Positions 2,625 to 24,116 of a stretch of 64,000 nt of DNA are shown piece after piece. The position numbers were made by a program, and so were the translations under genes. Below the pieces are notes generated by a model. It saw nothing but the letters and a program-made list of their open reading frames with translations, ran no database searches and was not told the origin of the DNA. Position 1 is the stretch's first letter; every line of letters begins with the position of its first letter. The stretch comes from Escherichia phage AV108, in the sequence record OR352938.1. One strand, given 5' to 3'.

Positions 2625-2906
2625 TTATTCGTGATTAGTTTCGATGTTGTGTATTTTGCACCAGTTCAGCCAATCGCCAAGATCCTGATAGTTGATGCTT
2701 TTATCTGCTGCCATCGTTTTTGTCTTGATACCCATATGTGCGTTATGGGTAAGCATTTTTACAGTGAACTCAATTTTATCGCCTTTAGCTTTAACATCAA
2801 CCAGTTTGGTCCACTGGCTACCAGCGCCTCGAATGTTCATACCAACGATGTTTCCGATGTATGCTTCTTTGTTTTTCAGGATTTCGGTTGCTTTGATGAA
2901 TTTCAT
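2625..2906 (-). CDS. hypothetical protein
   Basis: 93-aa ORF with GGAGAATC RBS; own promoter at 2940-2968. Confidence 0.55.
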   Translation of the reverse strand: MKFIKATEILKNKEAYIGNIVGMNIRGAGSQWTKLVDVKAKGDKIEFTVKMLTHNAHMGIKTKTMAADKSINYQDLGDWLNWCKIHNIETNHE

Positions 2907-2939
2907 TTTTGATTCTCCAGTTCGTTTCGGTATGGGTGT

Positions 2940-2968
2940 ATTATGCTATGTTCTTACTTTGGTGTCAA
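2940..2968 (-). promoter_or_regulatory. sigma70-type early promoter
   Basis: tgtcaa 2963-2968, CATAAT-like -10 at 2940-2945. Confidence 0.5.
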
Positions 2969-2976
2969 CAACTTTT

Positions 2977-3246
2977 TTAGATATTTTCAGAAATAAATTT
3001 TAAAACTTGACGTAAATGTTTCTCATCTTTGATAGTCGCCGGAAGTTCTTCTTTTACTTCCTGTGCAAGATAGATATTTCCGTTCCAAGTGAAAGATCCG
3101 TCTTCGTTTACGCGATAGCTGAACATCCACTCGCAATCATTTTCGATTTCATATACACACAGAAGGGTGTAATCGTTAAAGCTATTGATTTCAAGGTCGA
3201 AGCCGTGACGTTTTGCAAAGTTGGTAGTGGTTTTAGTCAGCGCCAT
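2977..3246 (-). CDS. hypothetical protein
   Basis: 89-aa ORF, AGGAGAATCAAACA-ATG leader, promoter at 3287-3315. Confidence 0.55.
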   Translation of the reverse strand: MALTKTTTNFAKRHGFDLEINSFNDYTLLCVYEIENDCEWMFSYRVNEDGSFTWNGNIYLAQEVKEELPATIKDEKHLRQVLKFISENI

Positions 3247-3286
3247 TGTTTGATTCTCCTAAGTGGTATCTCGTTTCGATGGGTGT

Positions 3287-3315
3287 ATTATGCTATAGGC
3301 GTGATCTGGTGTCAA
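3287..3315 (-). promoter_or_regulatory. sigma70-type early promoter
   Basis: tgtcaa 3310-3315, CATAAT-like -10 3287-3292, 17-nt spacer. Confidence 0.5.
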
Positions 3316-3340
3316 CAACTTTTTTAATTTTTTGGAAATA

Positions 3341-3366
3341 AAAAAGCCGACACTAAGGTCGGCTAA
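3341..3366 (-). terminator. rho-independent terminator
   Basis: hairpin AGCCGAC-N6-GTCGGCT followed by a U-run on the minus-strand transcript, just downstream of the 3372..3680 stop. Confidence 0.6.
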
Positions 3367-3371
3367 TAAAA

Positions 3372-3680
3372 TCATTTAGACAAATAATCATTCAGTGCAA
3401 TCCGGTCGGCGTATGCTGGTGTTACGTCAATCGCAATCACTTTAACGCGTGCTTTCTTGCGACCTGGGTTTTCTCGTAACCAGTGCTCATGACCGTGAAC
3501 ATTTTTATACTTTGATGCTTCTTCAAATGTACGGATCGGACCTGGATAATCTGCGTAAAGGATCTCTAGGTCTTCGGTGATGTAAAAATATACATCATAA
3601 TTACTGTTCTCTAGTTTAAGCAGAGACTTTCTGAACATTGGGAGATTTTCGCGGGTAAATTCAAAGATATTATCTTTCAT
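3372..3680 (-). CDS. small protein, HxHxW/V-x-A-I-D-V paralog family member A
   Basis: 102 aa; GAGGA RBS; motifs HGHEHW and VIAIDV shared with five other ORFs in 4103-6778. Confidence 0.55.
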   Translation of the reverse strand: MKDNIFEFTRENLPMFRKSLLKLENSNYDVYFYITEDLEILYADYPGPIRTFEEASKYKNVHGHEHWLRENPGRKKARVKVIAIDVTPAYADRIALNDYLSK

Positions 3681-3733
3681 AGTATTATCCTCAATAGTTT
3701 GATGAAAAGGGGTGGGGCTTAACGCCCCGTATA

Positions 3734-4021
3734 TTAAAACAGTCCTTCCTGTACACCGTAGTAGAGTTCATCGCTGATAATTTCATTAATGCGACGGTGT
3801 GCATATTCCTGATTTGCGAAGTTATCAGCAAGTTCTACTTTAGTTTCGCCGTCATGAGTCCATTTAGTGATAACTTTACCATCTGCAAATTTGAAGTTGA
3901 ACTCTTTAGCTACTGCATCACGTACCAGACGTGCGAACTTGTTGTTACGGATTGCATTATCGGTTTCGTGTGCAGCGTGAGCGAATTTATTAACTTTCAG
4001 AGTGATAGTAATGTATGCCAT
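3734..4021 (-). CDS. hypothetical protein
   Basis: 95-aa ORF with GGAGAATCAAC leader; promoter at 4068-4096. Confidence 0.55.
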   Translation of the reverse strand: MAYITITLKVNKFAHAAHETDNAIRNNKFARLVRDAVAKEFNFKFADGKVITKWTHDGETKVELADNFANQEYAHRRINEIISDELYYGVQEGLF

Positions 4022-4067
4022 AAGTTGATTCTCCTAGTTAGAAAGTGTATCTCGTTTCGATGGGTGT

Positions 4068-4096
4068 ATTATGCTATACACCCGATCTTATGTCAA
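4068..4096 (-). promoter_or_regulatory. sigma70-type early promoter
   Basis: tgtcaa 4091-4096, CATAAT-like -10 4068-4073, 17-nt spacer. Confidence 0.5.
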
Positions 4097-18032: not shown

Positions 18033-20276
18033 TTACAGCTTGCAAGATGAGCACTCGCTAGCGTCTTCCGTACCATCAGCACCGTCGCGAACGTTCGCAT
18101 AATACAGGGTTTTCAGACCGTAATATTGAGCAAACAACATATCATCTAACACATCAGCAATATCGACTTTACCAGTCTTATAAGTGCTTGGATCGTATGA
18201 TGTATTGGAACTAATCGCCTGATCCACAAACTTCTGCATGATCGCTGCCAGTGTCAGATAAGGCTTGTTACCTTTCTTGATCAGTGTCCAAAGCAGGTCA
18301 ATAACATCAGCATTATTCTCTACGTTCGGAATAACCTGATTAAATTGCCCTTCTTTCGATCCTTTAACCGATACAATACCGCGAGGCGGTTCAATACCGT
18401 TTGTGCTGTTAGATACCTGAGAAGACGACTCACAAGGCATCAGAGCCGAAAGCGTACTGTTACGAATGCCATATTTTTTCAGGTCTTCGCGCAGTTCTTC
18501 CCAATCCATCTCATATACCGGATCAACCAGTTCATCTACTGTCTTTTTGTACCAGTCGATAGGCAGTTCACCGCGTCCATAACGTGTTTCGTGCATCAGT
18601 TCGCAAGCACCCTTCTCTTTAGCCAGTTGCACACTAGCCTTAATCAGAGCATATTGCAAGCGTTCAAACGTTTTATGCGTAAACTCGTTAGCGTCTTCAT
18701 ATGTGAAGAAATTATCCGCGAGATACGATGCAAAGTTAGTCACCCCAACACCCAGAGAGCGACGTTTTTTGGATGTCAGAGCTTGCTCTACAGGATAATC
18801 CTGGTAATCTAACAGGTTGTCAAGTGCACGCACCATAACCATAGCAATGCGTTCTACTTCTTCCATATTTTCGATATCAAAGTTTCCTAAAACATATGCT
18901 GCCAAAGTACATAGGCTGATCTCTGAATCATCACGACCCATCGGTTTTGTAGGCAGAGCAATTTCACAACACAGGTTGGATTGTTTAATCGGTGCTACAT
19001 TACGAATAAACGCCCCGTGATTGTTCATGTTGTCTGTGAACGTTGGGTAGATTCGACCAGTGTTAAAACGTTCAATTGCCACCGCTAAAAACAGGTCTTC
19101 GGCTTTAACACGAGTTTTACGAACACTCGGATCTTTTTCCAGTTTTTCGTAAAGCTGGCGGAAACCTTCCTCATCTCGGAAGTATAGATCCCACAACAAG
19201 CCACCTGCAACATCTGGACTAAACAGAGTAATGTAATCCCGTTTAAGGAATCGCTCTACCATCAGGTTATTAATCTGTACGCCGTAATCAAGATGACGAA
19301 TGCGGTTATCTTCCACCCCCTTATTGTTCTTTAACACAATCAGACTTTCAAACTCTAAATGCCACATTGGGTAATAGAGAGTCGCCGCCCCGCCACGAAT
19401 ACCGCCTTGTGAGCATGACTTAACGGCAGTCTGAAAATGTTTCCAGAATGGGATAACGCCAGTATGACGAACTTCACCATGCCCGATCTTAGATCCTTCC
19501 GCGCGAATCATGCCAGCGTTGATACCGATACCAGCACGCTTGCTAATATACTTGATGATTGCATTTGCTGTTTCGTTGATGCCCTGCAATGAGTCATCAC
19601 TTTCAATCACCACACACGAACTAAATTGGCGTGTTGGGGTACGCACACCTGCCATAATCGGAGTAGGCAGAGAGATTTGCTTATTCGCAACAGCATTATA
19701 AAAATCAATCACATGTTCAAGTCTATTTTCGGTCTCTTCTTGATGCAAGCACATACCGATCAGCATATACGCAAATTGCGGTGTTTCGATGATTTTCTTA
19801 GTGCTGCGATCCTGAACAAGATATTTCTCTTTTAACTGCATCGCACCAGCATAGGTCATTTTAAAATCAAGTTTATGGTCGATGAATTTCTCCAGATATT
19901 CCACTTCTTCACGGGAATACTTTTGCAGAATTTCGCGATCATATTTTCCGATTGCAATATTACGCTCAATATGGCTATAAAAATCAATAGGTTGGAATTG
20001 ACCGTATACTGATTTACGAAGCGCGAACATTGCAAGGTTACTTGCTACATATTGATAATCGGGTGTTTCTACCGTGATGTTATCTGCGGCGACCTTAATC
20101 AATACTTTCTGGATATCATTGGTAGACATACCTTCTGTCAGAAGTGGTTCAACCATATCAAACAATTCATATGGATCAACGTTATGACCTTCGGCTGCCG
20201 CTTCCAGAATTTTCATTACTTTTTCTTTTTCAAACGGAACAGTCAGACCGGAAGACTTAACAACATTTTTAATCAT
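18033..20276 (-). CDS. nrdA: ribonucleotide reductase large subunit
   Basis: 747 aa, long identical blocks to T4 NrdA as recalled (GVIPFWKHFQTAVKSCSQGGIRGGAAT, NSTLSALMPCESSSQVSNSTNG). Confidence 0.92.
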   Translation of the reverse strand: MIKNVVKSSGLTVPFEKEKVMKILEAAAEGHNVDPYELFDMVEPLLTEGMSTNDIQKVLIKVAADNITVETPDYQYVASNLAMFALRKSVYGQFQPIDFYSHIERNIAIGKYDREILQKYSREEVEYLEKFIDHKLDFKMTYAGAMQLKEKYLVQDRSTKKIIETPQFAYMLIGMCLHQEETENRLEHVIDFYNAVANKQISLPTPIMAGVRTPTRQFSSCVVIESDDSLQGINETANAIIKYISKRAGIGINAGMIRAEGSKIGHGEVRHTGVIPFWKHFQTAVKSCSQGGIRGGAATLYYPMWHLEFESLIVLKNNKGVEDNRIRHLDYGVQINNLMVERFLKRDYITLFSPDVAGGLLWDLYFRDEEGFRQLYEKLEKDPSVRKTRVKAEDLFLAVAIERFNTGRIYPTFTDNMNNHGAFIRNVAPIKQSNLCCEIALPTKPMGRDDSEISLCTLAAYVLGNFDIENMEEVERIAMVMVRALDNLLDYQDYPVEQALTSKKRRSLGVGVTNFASYLADNFFTYEDANEFTHKTFERLQYALIKASVQLAKEKGACELMHETRYGRGELPIDWYKKTVDELVDPVYEMDWEELREDLKKYGIRNSTLSALMPCESSSQVSNSTNGIEPPRGIVSVKGSKEGQFNQVIPNVENNADVIDLLWTLIKKGNKPYLTLAAIMQKFVDQAISSNTSYDPSTYKTGKVDIADVLDDMLFAQYYGLKTLYYANVRDGADGTEDASECSSCKL

Positions 20277-20344
20277 ATTACCTCACTTCATATTTTAGCA
20301 GGAACAAGTTTATCCTCCATATTGGGGGCTTTCGCCCCCTTTGT

Positions 20345-21577
20345 TTATACTGCCATTTGAGCGGTGATCGCTGGATGGCTTTGATAGTTGTGAATTTTAA
20401 AGTCTTTCGGAGTCTTTGTCAATACCTCATCTAAAGATTTAAATTCCGGCAACTCAATTGTTGGTTTATCAAACGGAACACGGCTTAACTGTTCCATAAC
20501 TTGATCAAAGTGGTTTTTGTAAATGTGAGTATCTCCACCAGAGAAAATCAGTTCTCCTACCTCAAGATCACACATTTTCGCTATGATGTGAGTTAACAGC
20601 GCATAGCTGGCAACATTAAAGGGCAAGCCCAAAAAGCTGTCTACGCTTCGCTGAAACCACATACAAGACAGTTTACCTTCATTGACGTAGAATTGCACGA
20701 AAGGATGACATACACCCAATACAGCATTATGTGTTCCTTGTACGTTCCATGAGTCAATAATGATCCGGCGATCCGTTGGATTGTTTTTAATTTGTTCAAT
20801 CACGTTTTGTAACTGGTCTTCCCAAATCTTCGGGCGATAGACATATTCTTCATCGTCTTTAGTGCTCGATGTGTCTACGTCCATACTAGCAAAGATCGTG
20901 GTATCTGGTGCTAAAATATCCCCACCCAGATAATCACTATCAAGTAGATAACCGAAATAACCATCATCTACCCATTCCTGGAATCCCCACAAGCAATATG
21001 CATCATTAACAAAATTAGATTGAGTCTTCCAGTGATCTGCTACTAAGAATTGATTATATTCAGAATCAAACTCTTCATAACGCATACCACGCCAGATAGC
21101 ACATAAACGGTCTTCTGTGTCGTTGGTTGGCGTAAAGTCTTCTACCCACGGGTGCTTAAATGTATGTGCATATTTGCTCTTAACGCGCTTAATTTTGATT
21201 TCACCGTGTGGATGAATCGGTTTGCGTCGCCATGCCATACCATACATATTGCCGACATTATAACCATTGAATCGCAAAGGATTCTTTTCTTTCATATCAA
21301 GACAGTTGCCGCGCCAAATGTCGAAGGCTTCTTCGTCAAACTTACCGCGTGTAATTTCCTGTAAGCGACGGCGGTCAAGTGATCCCTCCATAAACCATAG
21401 CAATTCGCCAATTACAGAGGCTGTAGCCATCTTTTTAGTGGTCAGTAATGGGAAACCCTTGCTTAAATCAATTCGCATCTCTGCGCCGAATTTAGAGAGC
21501 GTACCTACCCCCGTGCGGTCTTCACGAGGCCAGCCATTATCAAGAACATCACGCAACAGTTTCAAATATTCTTTCAT
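20345..21577 (-). CDS. td: thymidylate synthase with a large internal insertion
   Basis: TS motifs DRTGVGT, RRIIIDSWNV, CHPFVQFYV, GLPFNVASYALL, GGDTHIYKNH; about 115 extra residues between YGMAWR and EDQLQNV; continuous frame. Confidence 0.88.
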   Translation of the reverse strand: MKEYLKLLRDVLDNGWPREDRTGVGTLSKFGAEMRIDLSKGFPLLTTKKMATASVIGELLWFMEGSLDRRRLQEITRGKFDEEAFDIWRGNCLDMKEKNPLRFNGYNVGNMYGMAWRRKPIHPHGEIKIKRVKSKYAHTFKHPWVEDFTPTNDTEDRLCAIWRGMRYEEFDSEYNQFLVADHWKTQSNFVNDAYCLWGFQEWVDDGYFGYLLDSDYLGGDILAPDTTIFASMDVDTSSTKDDEEYVYRPKIWEDQLQNVIEQIKNNPTDRRIIIDSWNVQGTHNAVLGVCHPFVQFYVNEGKLSCMWFQRSVDSFLGLPFNVASYALLTHIIAKMCDLEVGELIFSGGDTHIYKNHFDQVMEQLSRVPFDKPTIELPEFKSLDEVLTKTPKDFKIHNYQSHPAITAQMAV

Positions 21578-21839
21578 CCCACATCCCCTTTTTCTTTGCT
21601 TTCTTACGCAGTTTTGCTACTGTCTCGCTAATGTTAATAAAAATATCGTCTGGACCGAATACAGTAACAGGTCTTGATATATCGCTATTTTCTTGTACAG
21701 GAAACCATGACGCTTTCGATTCATCATAGAGATATTGCAACCCGTAAAGATCTTCTGCTACTGCGTAGTTTTCATTGGTTGCCGACCATAATCGAATAAT
21801 ACTGATTTTCATTATTGTTCCCGTCCGCAGTGTAAACAC
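21549..21839 (-). CDS. hypothetical protein
   Basis: 96-aa ORF between frd and td, 3' end overlaps the td start. Confidence 0.4.
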   Translation of the reverse strand: MFTLRTGTIMKISIIRLWSATNENYAVAEDLYGLQYLYDESKASWFPVQENSDISRPVTVFGPDDIFINISETVAKLRKKAKKKGMWDERIFETVA

Positions 21840-21905
21840 CGACTACCAGCAAACATCAAAGATTCACCACAATGTTTGCACTCATAATCTGTCAGAATTT
21901 TCATG

Positions 21906-22487
21906 TTACGCCTTCTTACGTTCTAAAATTTGTTCGCTGATCAGGTAATCATCAAGGAAGTAATTATGTTCTTCTTTTGTTGTAAAATCAAAATATAATT
22001 CCTGAATCATTTCCTTAGAGATGCCAACATCATATTCAAACGGATCATTAATTCCTGATCGTTGAACATACGTTAACACAATACGGTCCGCAAAGTCAAC
22101 TGCTTTTTCAATCAGGGAAGGTCCGCCAATAACGCTTACCAAACCTTGCAATTTCTCTATGACTTCTAATAATTCCTTCAATCCACCATCATTAGTAATC
22201 GCGGTATACACATCTGGTTGGTCGCCGTTTTTTGCTTTCGGTGCTGGCTTACTGGTATCGGTGCTAACAACCACATTCACACGACCTTCCAGTGCTTTAG
22301 GGAGACTTTCAAAGGTATTACGTCCCATTACAACCGCCGCAAGATCAACATCTCCCATAGTGCGCATTTTAAAGTTTTCCATGTCCTTTTTGATTGGACG
22401 TCCCCACGGTAAACCGCCTTTAAAACCAAAAGCCCAATTTTCATCTGACATTTTAGTGTCACCAATCGCAAATACACATTGAATCAT
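21906..22487 (-). CDS. frd: dihydrofolate reductase
   Basis: DHFR N-terminal pattern (FGxxGGLPWG) and frd-td-nrdA order as in T4. Confidence 0.85.
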   Translation of the reverse strand: MIQCVFAIGDTKMSDENWAFGFKGGLPWGRPIKKDMENFKMRTMGDVDLAAVVMGRNTFESLPKALEGRVNVVVSTDTSKPAPKAKNGDQPDVYTAITNDGGLKELLEVIEKLQGLVSVIGGPSLIEKAVDFADRIVLTYVQRSGINDPFEYDVGISKEMIQELYFDFTTKEEHNYFLDDYLISEQILERKKA

Positions 22488-22863: not shown

Positions 22864-22891
22864 ATTATACACTATTGCGTTACGCTGTCAA
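22864..22891 (-). promoter_or_regulatory. sigma70-type early promoter
   Basis: tgtcaa 22886-22891 and attata 22864-22869. Confidence 0.45.
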
Positions 22892-24058
22892 CTCTTTTTC
22901 AAAAGATTTTACGATATACATGATGGTGCTCAATTCGGACGGCGCTACTGTCTCTGTGTAGCCATCCGGCATATCTTCTTTCGAGATATAGGAAGTTTTA
23001 CCTTTCATTACTTCCTTGATTTTGTTCTCTAATTCTAAGATCTTTTGACCGTCTTGTAAAGTCAATTCATAAAAGATCTCATGATCGAACTTTGAAACAC
23101 GAGATTGGTTTCTCATGCGCTCATGTGTTTCTTTGTTTGTTATTCCAAATTTCACGCCAACAAAGGAATCATTGTTGGTTAATTTCTGTATATAAAGAGT
23201 TCCTGTCTTTAATGCCTGATAACCATGCTTAGAACACAACGGGCAGCGTGTTCCGCGATTAACAAAATTATCAATAGTTACATCCCATTCATGGTTACGT
23301 TCGCATGTCAGAAGTATTCTTGTTAATGCACCTTTCCACTTTCCTGAAATCCCAATAAATTTTAGTCTGTTGGTTTCGCATATTTTTTCAATTTGTTTTA
23401 ATCGGTCACTTTTTGTTATTGGTGCTGTTCCGCTACATTTGCGACACCGACGACCTAGTTTGAACTTATCATAACTTTGTTCGTAAATGTGATTATTAGG
23501 ACACTCAAATTTAAGTTTAGTTTTTGTTCCTCTCCATTCCCCAATTATACCCAAAAATTTATAATCTCCTTTATTTTCATTTATATAAGATAAGGAATCT
23601 TCTTTATCATGCATCTTGCCCCCGTTACATAAAGGACATCTTGTTTTTTGATGAATGAAATCTGTATATGTTGGTTGGTATGTGTGTCCGTTTGTACAGT
23701 TCATAATGAGTCTTGTTCTGCTATTTTTATACTCCCCACCAACAAAACCAACAAATACATCGTTTGTTTCTTGTTTTATTCTTTCTATCACATTGTTTGG
23801 GTTTAATCTTTGAGAATCAACCACACATTTCTTACACGAAACGTTTTTCCTGATATTTGCTAGAGTTGATGTGTATTCATGCTTGTTATTACATAATATA
23901 AGAGCTTTTGTTTTGAGACCAGACCATTCTCCAACAAACCCCATGAAAGAATAACCAACTTCCAAACATGAATTTTTTACAACATTTTCCCAATAGAAGG
24001 GAGTTTTCGTGTTTCCTTTTATTTCTATACTAATCTCATGTGCTTGACGTACTAACAT
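22880..24058 (-). CDS. four-repeat Cys/His module protein with a GIY-YIG-like C-terminal segment
   Basis: four tandem modules of about 65 aa of form F-x-G-(F/I)-x-G-(E/K)-(W/Y)-x(4)-(T/R)-x(4)-C-x(2,3)-H-x(14,15)-C-x(2)-C; C-terminal LYIQKL-N9-VGVKFGIT; start taken at ATG 24056-24058 with GGAGGA RBS; ORF track to 24103. Confidence 0.5.
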   Translation of the reverse strand: MLVRQAHEISIEIKGNTKTPFYWENVVKNSCLEVGYSFMGFVGEWSGLKTKALILCNNKHEYTSTLANIRKNVSCKKCVVDSQRLNPNNVIERIKQETNDVFVGFVGGEYKNSRTRLIMNCTNGHTYQPTYTDFIHQKTRCPLCNGGKMHDKEDSLSYINENKGDYKFLGIIGEWRGTKTKLKFECPNNHIYEQSYDKFKLGRRCRKCSGTAPITKSDRLKQIEKICETNRLKFIGISGKWKGALTRILLTCERNHEWDVTIDNFVNRGTRCPLCSKHGYQALKTGTLYIQKLTNNDSFVGVKFGITNKETHERMRNQSRVSKFDHEIFYELTLQDGQKILELENKIKEVMKGKTSYISKEDMPDGYTETVAPSELSTIMYIVKSFEKELTA

Positions 24059-24088
24059 ATTTTTATCCTCCGTTGTTTCGATGATTGT

Positions 24089-24116
24089 ATTATACATTAC
24101 CACATCAGCATGTCAA
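24089..24116 (-). promoter_or_regulatory. sigma70-type early promoter
   Basis: tgtcaa 24111-24116, attata 24089-24094. Confidence 0.45.

Follow-up and report, generated by a model that had tools for sequence, protein, structure and literature searches.

A probable remnant of an IPA-HNH homing-endonuclease module carried in frame, without splicing, by the thymidylate synthase of Escherichia phage AV108

Introduction

Homing endonucleases are known for a pattern of invasion, fixation and degeneration; in inteins the homing endonuclease is nested in a self-splicing Hint domain, and mini-inteins have lost the endonuclease. To our knowledge, homing endonucleases are thought to survive in essential genes only inside self-splicing introns or inteins, or between genes. 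Here we describe the td gene of Escherichia phage AV108, which lies in a 64,000-nt stretch of phage DNA (sequence record OR352938.1; the whole stretch is called the window below) and encodes a thymidylate synthase with a large in-frame insert that resembles an endonuclease-type domain and is translated as part of the enzyme.

The relevant protein family, IPA-HNH, is that of gp59, gp115-116 and gp209 of phage ICP1 (Barth, Dunham & Seed 2023, PMC10448857). Its members contain a divergent HNH-like N-terminal domain that is missed by Pfam HNH_3 and is often followed by AP2 domains, and they are enriched in Barbaviruses; T4 has no IPA-HNH genes, and thymidylate synthase is not mentioned in the paper that defined the family (PMC10448857). 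HNH/ββα-metal folds are represented by the nucleases PacI and Hpy99I, and SMAD MH1 is a catalytically dead ββα-metal DNA binder (PMC3384342). A non-splicing in-frame insertion, the ShiLan domain, was described in a mycobacteriophage DNA methylase (Arsenault, Gosselin & Gogarten 2025, PMC11855218). In the coliphage RB49, no group I introns and a free-standing AP2-HNH gene elsewhere in the genome were reported, and nothing was said on td (Nolan et al. 2006, PMC1524935).

In the openly searchable literature, with subscription-only sources outside its scope, the in-frame spliceless architecture presented below is not described in the T4 mobile-element reviews, the jumbo-phage survey, the IPA-HNH paper or the intein surveys. 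The reported thymidylate synthase inteins of actinophages concern InterPro family IPR003669, which we take to be ThyX, a different enzyme.

Results

The td insert and its relation to IPA-HNH proteins

We consider it likely that td of AV108 encodes a working synthase whose surface loop between the WR and DQ motifs (the WR/DQ loop) carries an unspliced, in-frame and decayed IPA-HNH remnant. The td reading frame is uninterrupted from YGMAWR (residues 112-117) through the insert, with junctions WR/RKP and KIWE/DQL, to EDQLQNV, which begins at residue 253 (DQLQNV at 254). The WR-to-DQ segment is 136 aa long here versus 10 aa in E. coli and 5-11 aa in standard phage enzymes, a net gain of ~130 aa at this loop. 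A first-pass annotation, made from the letters alone, had reported a 410-aa Td with an in-frame Trp-rich insertion after YGMAWR, and the open reading frame (ORF), the alignment and the Trp count (6 of 136 residues) bear this out; the insertion is thus real, but its size, given there as about 115 residues, was underestimated. The total length excess over T4 is only 124 aa because the T4 enzyme is longer elsewhere. E. coli ThyA aligns on both sides of the insert, and T4 Td 120-286 on its C-terminal side.

By profile comparison, the insert is homologous to free-standing IPA-HNH proteins of the ICP1 gp59 type. When a profile of the six inserts of the short clade, to which the window's insert belongs, was compared by hhalign with one of 30 free-standing proteins including gp59, the two matched at a probability of 97.7% (E = 1.3e-12) over 78 columns, insert residues 33-113, and this test of the window's clade is independent of the long inserts found in other synthases. 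A hidden Markov model (HMM) search with the embedded-module profile gave 3e-36 for the window's insert, a value that is partly circular since the profile contains that insert itself. The long inserts match PHROGs families annotated as HNH endonuclease (1.7e-33, 5e-24 and 2e-20), and one of these labels, phrog_2081 'HNH endonuclease', matches the window's insert weakly (E = 0.16) over the same region of the profile as the long inserts. The published IPA-HNH description fits the module found here. The earlier interpretation was sound as a description of the gene and stopped short of this identity, a degenerate IPA-HNH homing-endonuclease module.

Other searches returned little. Pfam gave no meaningful match to the six inserts even at E<=10, and none to ICP1 gp59 and two AP2-like relatives, so that the AP2 assignment comes from the published work (PMC10448857). 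A sequence-profile search of the PDB with the inserts yielded 0 matches at E<=10, and Foldseek against the PDB found nothing significant, with only SH3/Tudor-like noise for the small β-barrel. In a viral structure library, the top match was another module-bearing thymidylate synthase; free-standing phage proteins came next, and several of these bear the name homing endonuclease. The predicted fold is weakly consistent with a divergent HNH/ββα-metal-like domain. The motif L-D-K-D…Y-S..T-C.F…N, whose spacing resembles that of D-H…N in ββα-metal fingers, is kept in ~90% of embedded and free-standing copies alike, and D164/K165/D166 are conserved in ~90% of 211 embedded and free-standing copies. 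Most embedded copies therefore retain the activity of the module, whatever that is; IPA-HNH proteins are presumably nucleases.

The free-standing member P0163 matches 1,459 phage records, including 803 of Vibrio and 115 of Rheinheimera phages, where it is variously annotated as an HNH endonuclease, a DNA-binding or AP2 protein, or hypothetical; its match in ICP1 is the gene formerly called gp59, which lies beside the DNA polymerase gene. This abundance bears on the idea that the insert is a lineage-specific elaboration of the synthase 'small domain', as in L. casei, unrelated to mobile elements. Synthases do vary in this general region (316 aa in L. casei vs 264 aa in E. coli). However, significant homology to free-standing genes in so many phage records without a synthase is hard to reconcile with such an origin, and the L. 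casei insert lies upstream of YG.QWR, outside the WR/DQ loop. It was rejected as an explanation because the site is different, and we regard an origin of this kind as extremely improbable.

A family of inserts at the same loop

A whole-protein search returned ~25 long thymidylate synthases (401-613 aa) in which the surplus lines up with the window's insert at the same loop, with insert lengths of 127-284 aa. Homologous inserts were seen in no fewer than 79 clusters of full-length phage thymidylate synthases in the sample analysed. The long inserts exceed the window's in three places: a β-barrel of ~70 aa precedes the shared core, the first-helix region is extended, and a C-terminal subdomain of a β-hairpin and a helix follows; in the model of a long insert the barrel strands are at 39-71, a helix at 183-190, and further strands and a helix at 197-216. 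The stalk flanks P.PHG…I.RK and V.RPKI are conserved among embedded modules. The insert alone as a query in a word-indexed protein search gave no match, and a full-length query and an exhaustive profile search were needed. The insert-only profile, run against 1.84 billion representatives, matched 14,046 proteins at E<=1e-3 and 4,720 at E<=1e-10. The best 148 of these comprise 64 thymidylate synthases with the module between E. coli positions ~105 and 108, 51 free-standing proteins of 300 aa or less, 26 proteins with two module copies and no synthase, and 7 others. No further module copy was found in a search of the window.

Long embedded modules are present in cultured phages, namely Klebsiella phages KP13-7 and phiKp_21, E. 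coli phage UE-S1, Vibrio phages D69/D148/D181 and Bacillus phage 015DV002; E. coli phage ph0011 also matches, by a sequence match to a gene that was not inspected. Public labels do not always reveal these enzymes: the 477-aa module-bearing synthase of Vibrio phages D181/D148/D69 (2644-4077 in D181, OZ196140.1) is called 'HNH endonuclease', and the 517-aa one of phiKp_21 (LC768484.1), a close relative of KP13-7, 'hypothetical protein'. The only match attributed to a bacterium, P0023 from a metagenome-assembled genome, sits on a T4-like phage contig, and there is therefore no evidence for the module in cellular ThyA. The first-pass annotation would have been refuted by an insert common in ordinary ThyA enzymes; it is not common in the cellular ones, but neither is it idiosyncratic, since it has homologues in phage synthases.

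Two variations of the architecture were also observed. Two tandem IPA-HNH modules in one polypeptide without a synthase occur in P0126, P0128, P0131, P0132 and P0142, which are among the 26 double-copy proteins mentioned above, and by analogy with tandem LAGLIDADG enzymes they could be single-chain pseudo-dimers. In some module-bearing synthases (P0137, P0138, P0185, P0201, P0206, P0208, P0234, P0261 and P0268), a second insertion of ~20-55 aa near E. coli position 155 splits the C-terminal core match.

Signs of mobility

Module presence varies in lineages other than that of AV108. The synthase core of the module-bearing P0024 (552 aa) is 92% identical to that of the module-less P0056 (299 aa), while it is only ~54% identical to the core of the window's enzyme. 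The two genes lie on syntenic phage contigs. Homology between the genes covers nt 1-357 and 1208-1659, with 850 nt in one in place of 92 nt in the other. To judge from these sequences, the presence/absence pattern is as would be expected of a mobile cassette. A second such pair was sought among cultured jumbo phages, where the nearest module-less enzymes (Muenster, CMSTMSU) are 61-65% identical to that of KP13-7 and uninformative.

The nearest neighbour of an embedded module is another embedded module in 84 of 90 cases, and embedded modules share the stalk flanks, which most free-standing copies do not have. This would fit a td-specific lineage of modules; only the nearest-neighbour assortment is used here, as a neighbour-joining tree of 90 module columns did not settle the monophyly of embedded modules. 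Among free-standing copies, P0144 resembles the embedded modules most; it is located directly downstream of a td gene and may be a link between the two forms.

Three further arrangements involving td deserve mention. In contig L015 (1-1560; Logan SRR24204718), P0144 occupies 99-893 and has stalk-like flanks; nt 1-75 translate to the 3' end of td, …DFLLQNYEHHGTIKAPLSVG followed by the stop codon, and an exonuclease/polymerase-like ORF follows P0144. In contig L016 (4465-5584; Logan SRR28495928), td is cut to a frameshifted N-terminal fragment of ~76 residues that overlaps the module ORF P0186 (287 aa), which is apparently intact and keeps an IDKD…N motif, and no C-terminal half of td is present downstream. 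Lastly, td is a mosaic in the genus Krischvirus, to which the closest relatives of AV108 belong. The genes of JSE and GEC-3S are 88-100% identical in nucleotide sequence to the window's over codons 1-260, which include the insert, and 361-410; over codons 261-360 (20498-20797) identity is 50-77%, with the lowest bin at codons 301-320. A block of ~300 nt beginning just downstream of the insert was therefore acquired by exchange with a diverged td. Its position is roughly that which we take to be the target of the T4 td intron and I-TevI.

Degeneration of the AV108 copy

The copy in AV108 is cut down compared with intact modules: it has no N-terminal β-barrel, no C-terminal subdomain at all and no helix in the presumed ββα finger, and its first-helix region is shortened. 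With these flanking subdomains deleted, the 136-aa insert contains neither AP2 nor any other attached DNA-binding module. The conserved IPA-HNH motif is not preserved in it. It reads LLDSD…LA..TT.F, with Ser for the Lys, LA for YS and TT for TC, and the Asn of the helix is absent, as is the helix itself in the model. In the closest relatives the equivalents of L-D-K-D are LSCD, LTQK and LSLV. The net charge of the insert core, -13.9, is the most acidic of 188 copies (the median is +2.3 for embedded and +1.1 for free-standing cores).

The module is embedded in td in all 58 Krischvirus records and is neither free-standing nor variable there. No module-less synthase closer than ~57% identity to the window's was found in a 5.8-billion-protein collection, and the insert is therefore old and fixed in this lineage. 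A similar course is seen in a jumbo-phage-like lineage, where P0012 (517 aa) is intact, P0020 (505 aa) has LSKE and a deleted loop, and P0010/P0013 (417-418 aa) are truncated; as judged by sequence, this decay series is independent of that in Krischvirus. By analogy, the pattern is that of invasion, fixation and degeneration seen in homing endonucleases, and precise loss of the module would be hard because it is part of an essential protein. The insert of AV108 is thus probably a fixed, cut-down and inactive fossil of a homing-endonuclease domain.

An alternative is that the insert still drives the homing of td in Krischvirus, being active as a site-specific endonuclease or as a DNA-binding domain. 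Its homology to IPA-HNH, the retained finger β-hairpin and three helices, and the mosaic block of JSE and GEC-3S that starts just downstream of the insert could be read in this way. However, the Lys of LDKD, the YS and TC pairs, the Asn of the helix and the helix itself are lost, both flanking subdomains are deleted, no other core is as acidic, and no empty allele remains to home into. We hold continued activity to be very improbable.

The insert as a translated and constrained protein segment

The AlphaFold2 model of the td protein, built on a 41-sequence alignment, has a predicted local distance difference test score (pLDDT) of 93.4 and a predicted template modelling score of 0.91. The insert is modelled with the same confidence as the enzyme core (pLDDT mostly 89-98) and consists of a long two-strand β-stalk (residues 118-130 and 245-254) that bears a knob of three helices and a β-hairpin. 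The surface location proposed for it in the first-pass annotation is thus supported, and the suggested structure prediction yields a confident fold. The first 26 residues of the insert have a net charge of +7.4. The loop of lowest confidence (pLDDT 73 in block 171-180) is the site of the in-frame four-codon indel SEYN, the sole length polymorphism among seven Krischvirus td genes. In these genes, the ratio of nonsynonymous to synonymous substitution rates (ω) is 0.07-0.33 for the insert in most pairs versus 0.01-0.17 for the core; two higher insert values, 0.51 and 0.62, each come from ~10 substitutions. In more distant relatives, the insert has diverged only ~1.3-1.7 times faster than the core. 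The low ω, the in-frame indel and the modest divergence mean that the insert is translated and constrained: it is a protein segment, predicted to be folded, under purifying selection.

These data also bear on whether the segment might still be lost from the product, through an intron that went unrecognised, through a reaction like that of inteins or, in the manner of ShiLan, as the cover of a hidden out-of-frame gene. T4 td does have a group I intron, and in-frame insertions that hide an out-of-frame HNH gene exist (PMC11855218). But Rfam detects no group I intron or other RNA family, either in the whole window at gathering score or in 20000-22000 at E<=1; together with the continuous ORF and the in-frame ω of mostly 0.1-0.3, this upholds the earlier statement that td has no group I intron. 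Equally, intein boundary residues are lacking, as had been noted, and Pfam searches of the td protein and the inserts reveal no Hint or intein domain. In the window, the insert is not overlapped by any ORF of more than 70 aa in another frame, and in KP13-7 the only such ORF is a 78-aa antisense one at the edge of the insert. Codon-level purifying selection in the td frame and the confidently predicted in-frame fold also run counter to removal. Intron, intein and ShiLan-type hidden ORF were all rejected on the Rfam, Pfam and ORF evidence, and to cryptic removal we give hardly any credence.

Purifying selection could also mean that the remnant was exapted as a non-cutting acidic knob, a protein-interaction element or nucleic-acid mimic, that docks Td to, for example, the dNTP-synthesis complex or regulates the enzyme. 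The low ω and the single in-frame indel across seven genomes would suit such a role, as would the confidently predicted folded domain, the extreme net charge of -13.9 on a basic stalk, the block DAYCLWGFQEWVD that is invariant in the short clade, and the retention of the insert throughout the 58 Krischvirus records and even by relatives whose inserts are just 37-56% identical. However, most invariant residues are hydrophobic or aromatic and lie in the core, which maintenance of the fold alone would predict, and no partner, ligand or motif has been identified. Furthermore, the lineages of P0010, P0013 and P0020 decay alike by different deletions, which is expected of erosion and not of adaptation. 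We therefore consider exaptation unlikely and favour an eroded remnant that probably persists because the enzyme depends on its folding.

The td gene and its surroundings

The td product is a thymidylate synthase. It matches Pfam PF00303 at 1e-84 (284 bits, cut-off 24.3) in two stretches on either side of the insert, PHROG 160 at 4e-101 and ThyA chains of the PDB at 1e-68. Residues 1-82 and 254-410 align with E. coli ThyA 1-82 and 110-264, and residues 254-410 with T4 Td (1tis_A) 120-286. The active-site set is complete: Cys290-His291, Arg21, Glu58, Tyr112, Arg270/271, Arg310-Ser311-Asp313 and His351/Tyr353. Asn and not Asp at the pyrimidine-discriminating position separates thymidylate synthase from dCMP hydroxymethylase, and this position is Asn321, within GLPFNVASY. 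By these residues the enzyme is a thymidylate synthase and not a dCMP hydroxymethylase, and the first-pass reading of the catalytic Cys and of the Asn was correct. The features of the gene are collected in Table 1.

Table 1. Features of the td gene and its insert, with positions in the window
Feature	Position (nt)	Strand	Basis
td, 410-aa thymidylate synthase	20345..21577 incl. stop	(-)	ORF list, Pfam, PHROG, Krischvirus annotations
Synthase core, N-terminal part, residues 1-117, ending YGMAWR	21227..21577	(-)	E. coli ThyA alignment; invariant R21, E58, Y112, W116, R117
In-frame insert, residues 118-253, 136 aa	20819..21226	(-)	boundaries from alignment; model; ω
β-stalk N-terminal strand, basic, residues 118-130, RKPIHPHGEIKIK	21188..21226	(-)	model strand E118-130
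Linker, residues 131-149	21131..21187	(-)	site of ~70-aa β-barrel subdomain in intact modules, deleted here; alignment gap
IPA-HNH-homologous core, residues 150-230, three helices and β-hairpin	20888..21130	(-)	hhalign, HMM, weak phrog_2081 match
SEYN, four codons, residues 172-175	21053..21064	(-)	missing in JSE, GEC-3S, JK32; alignment of 7 td genes
LLDSD, residues 211-215, degenerate L-D-K-D motif	20933..20947	(-)	motif comparison, 211 copies
Acidic coil, residues 232-244, in place of ββα helix and C-terminal subdomain	20846..20884	(-)	model coil after strand 228-231; alignment gap
β-stalk C-terminal strand, residues 245-254, EYVYRPKIWE-D, back into synthase	20816..20845	(-)	model strand E245-254
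Synthase core, C-terminal part, residues 254-410	20348..20818	(-)	E. coli ThyA 110-264 alignment, 1.9e-47
Catalytic Cys290	20708-20710	(-)	residue check
Asn321	20615-20617	(-)	residue check

The td DNA is 97-99% identical to that of RB49-like coliphages of the genus Krischvirus (best FL37, 99.4%; RB49, 98.1%), and the full-length gene is present in 58 of 58 matching Krischvirus records, where it is annotated td or thyA, plain thymidylate synthase. It is flanked by nrdA (18033-20276) and by a small ORF followed by frd (21906-22487), in the T4-type order. A 96-aa ORF (21549-21839, (-) strand), the counterpart of RB49ORF236c, overlaps the start codon region of td by 29 nt, and the overlap is annotated likewise in RB49, JSE, GEC-3S, JK32, SSG23 and ECD7. 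Further on, a 407-aa ORF (22880-24103, (-) strand) is the counterpart of RB49ORF239c, which was listed as DUF723 at E 0.098 (Nolan 2006, PMC1524935). It consists of ~5 tandem units of ~60 aa with paired CxxC-like motifs (F.GF.GEW.G..TK…C…H.Y…C..C), and its C-terminal segment (GTLYIQK…VGVKFGIT) recalls GIY-YIG/T5orf172 nucleases; it may be a further homing-endonuclease-like gene near td.

Discussion

A history that would account for these observations begins with an IPA-HNH cassette, equipped with its own two-strand β-stalk, that entered td at the WR/DQ loop. Splicing would have been unnecessary because the enzyme tolerated the cassette. It would then have spread between td genes, presumably by cutting empty alleles, which were then repaired from the filled one. 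In the Krischvirus lineage, the cassette would have been fixed and would then have degenerated: both flanking subdomains were presumably deleted, the ββα helix lost and the Lys of LDKD replaced by Ser, and the core became strongly acidic. What is left would be a compact folded knob on a stalk, which now probably neither cuts nor binds DNA and is probably retained by purifying selection since misfolding or imprecise deletion would harm an essential enzyme.

It is possible, although we would not call it probable, that the intact members of the family represent a third strategy beside introns and inteins, a homing endonuclease that lives inside an essential gene as a never-spliced, folded β-stalk domain, and that intact copies still cut module-less td alleles while being part of the dimeric enzyme. 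Candidates for such active copies would be those of KP13-7, UE-S1, the three Vibrio phages, Bacillus phage 015DV002 and many metagenomic phages, and the synthase dimer would supply the two nuclease domains needed for a double-strand cut.

In either case, an endonuclease-type domain appears here to be simply tolerated as part of an essential enzyme. One type of locus presents the stages side by side, from apparently intact embedded copies through a presence/absence pair and point-mutated or truncated copies to what is likely a fixed fossil in RB49-like coliphages. Cultured phages and a well-understood enzyme are at hand for a direct test of the idea, and the IPA-HNH family, so far defined only bioinformatically, gains a convenient biochemical handle. 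A long-standing oddity of RB49-group annotations, the 410-aa Td, would be explained, and misannotation in public records is flagged for the synthases of D181 and phiKp_21.

Comparison with known systems

The embedded module shares with free-standing IPA-HNH proteins the same domain by sequence, its carriage by phages, its invisibility to Pfam, its HNH-like character, its abundance in Vibrio and Rheinheimera (Barba) phages and an association with nucleotide-metabolism and replication genes. However, the described IPA-HNH proteins are free-standing ORFs, usually with a C-terminal AP2 domain, whereas the module here is translated within an enzyme and has no AP2; moreover, the window's copy is truncated and its conserved motif is gone.

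Like the T4 td group I intron with I-TevI, the module is a homing-endonuclease element that invaded td, but at another site and with an endonuclease of another family (I-TevI is GIY-YIG), and the T4 element is removed at the RNA level. The insert of ~50 aa in the synthases of L. casei and other Gram-positive bacteria is similar in that it too is an extra piece of surface which this enzyme fold accommodates in roughly this region. It is located between WDEWA and YGDLG…YGSQWR, upstream of WR/DQ, the L. casei WR/DQ loop having its normal 10 aa, and, in contrast to the window's insert, it is unrelated to mobile-element proteins.

Like inteins and mini-inteins, the module is a parasite inserted in frame into an enzyme of nucleotide metabolism, at a conserved site, and follows a course of invasion, fixation and endonuclease decay. 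Unlike them, it has neither a Hint domain nor Cys/Ser…His-Asn junctions; it is not spliced and stays part of the enzyme. The closest precedent for a spliceless in-frame insertion is the ShiLan domain, likewise a homing-type insertion in a phage gene that keeps the frame of its host, lacks features of introns and inteins and is presumably retained as a protruding hairpin. ShiLan differs in that its HNH endonuclease is read in a frame other than that of the host gene, a dispensable methylase, and translation in frame yields just a loop, whereas in td the endonuclease-like domain is itself in frame and predicted to be folded, and its host is an essential enzyme.

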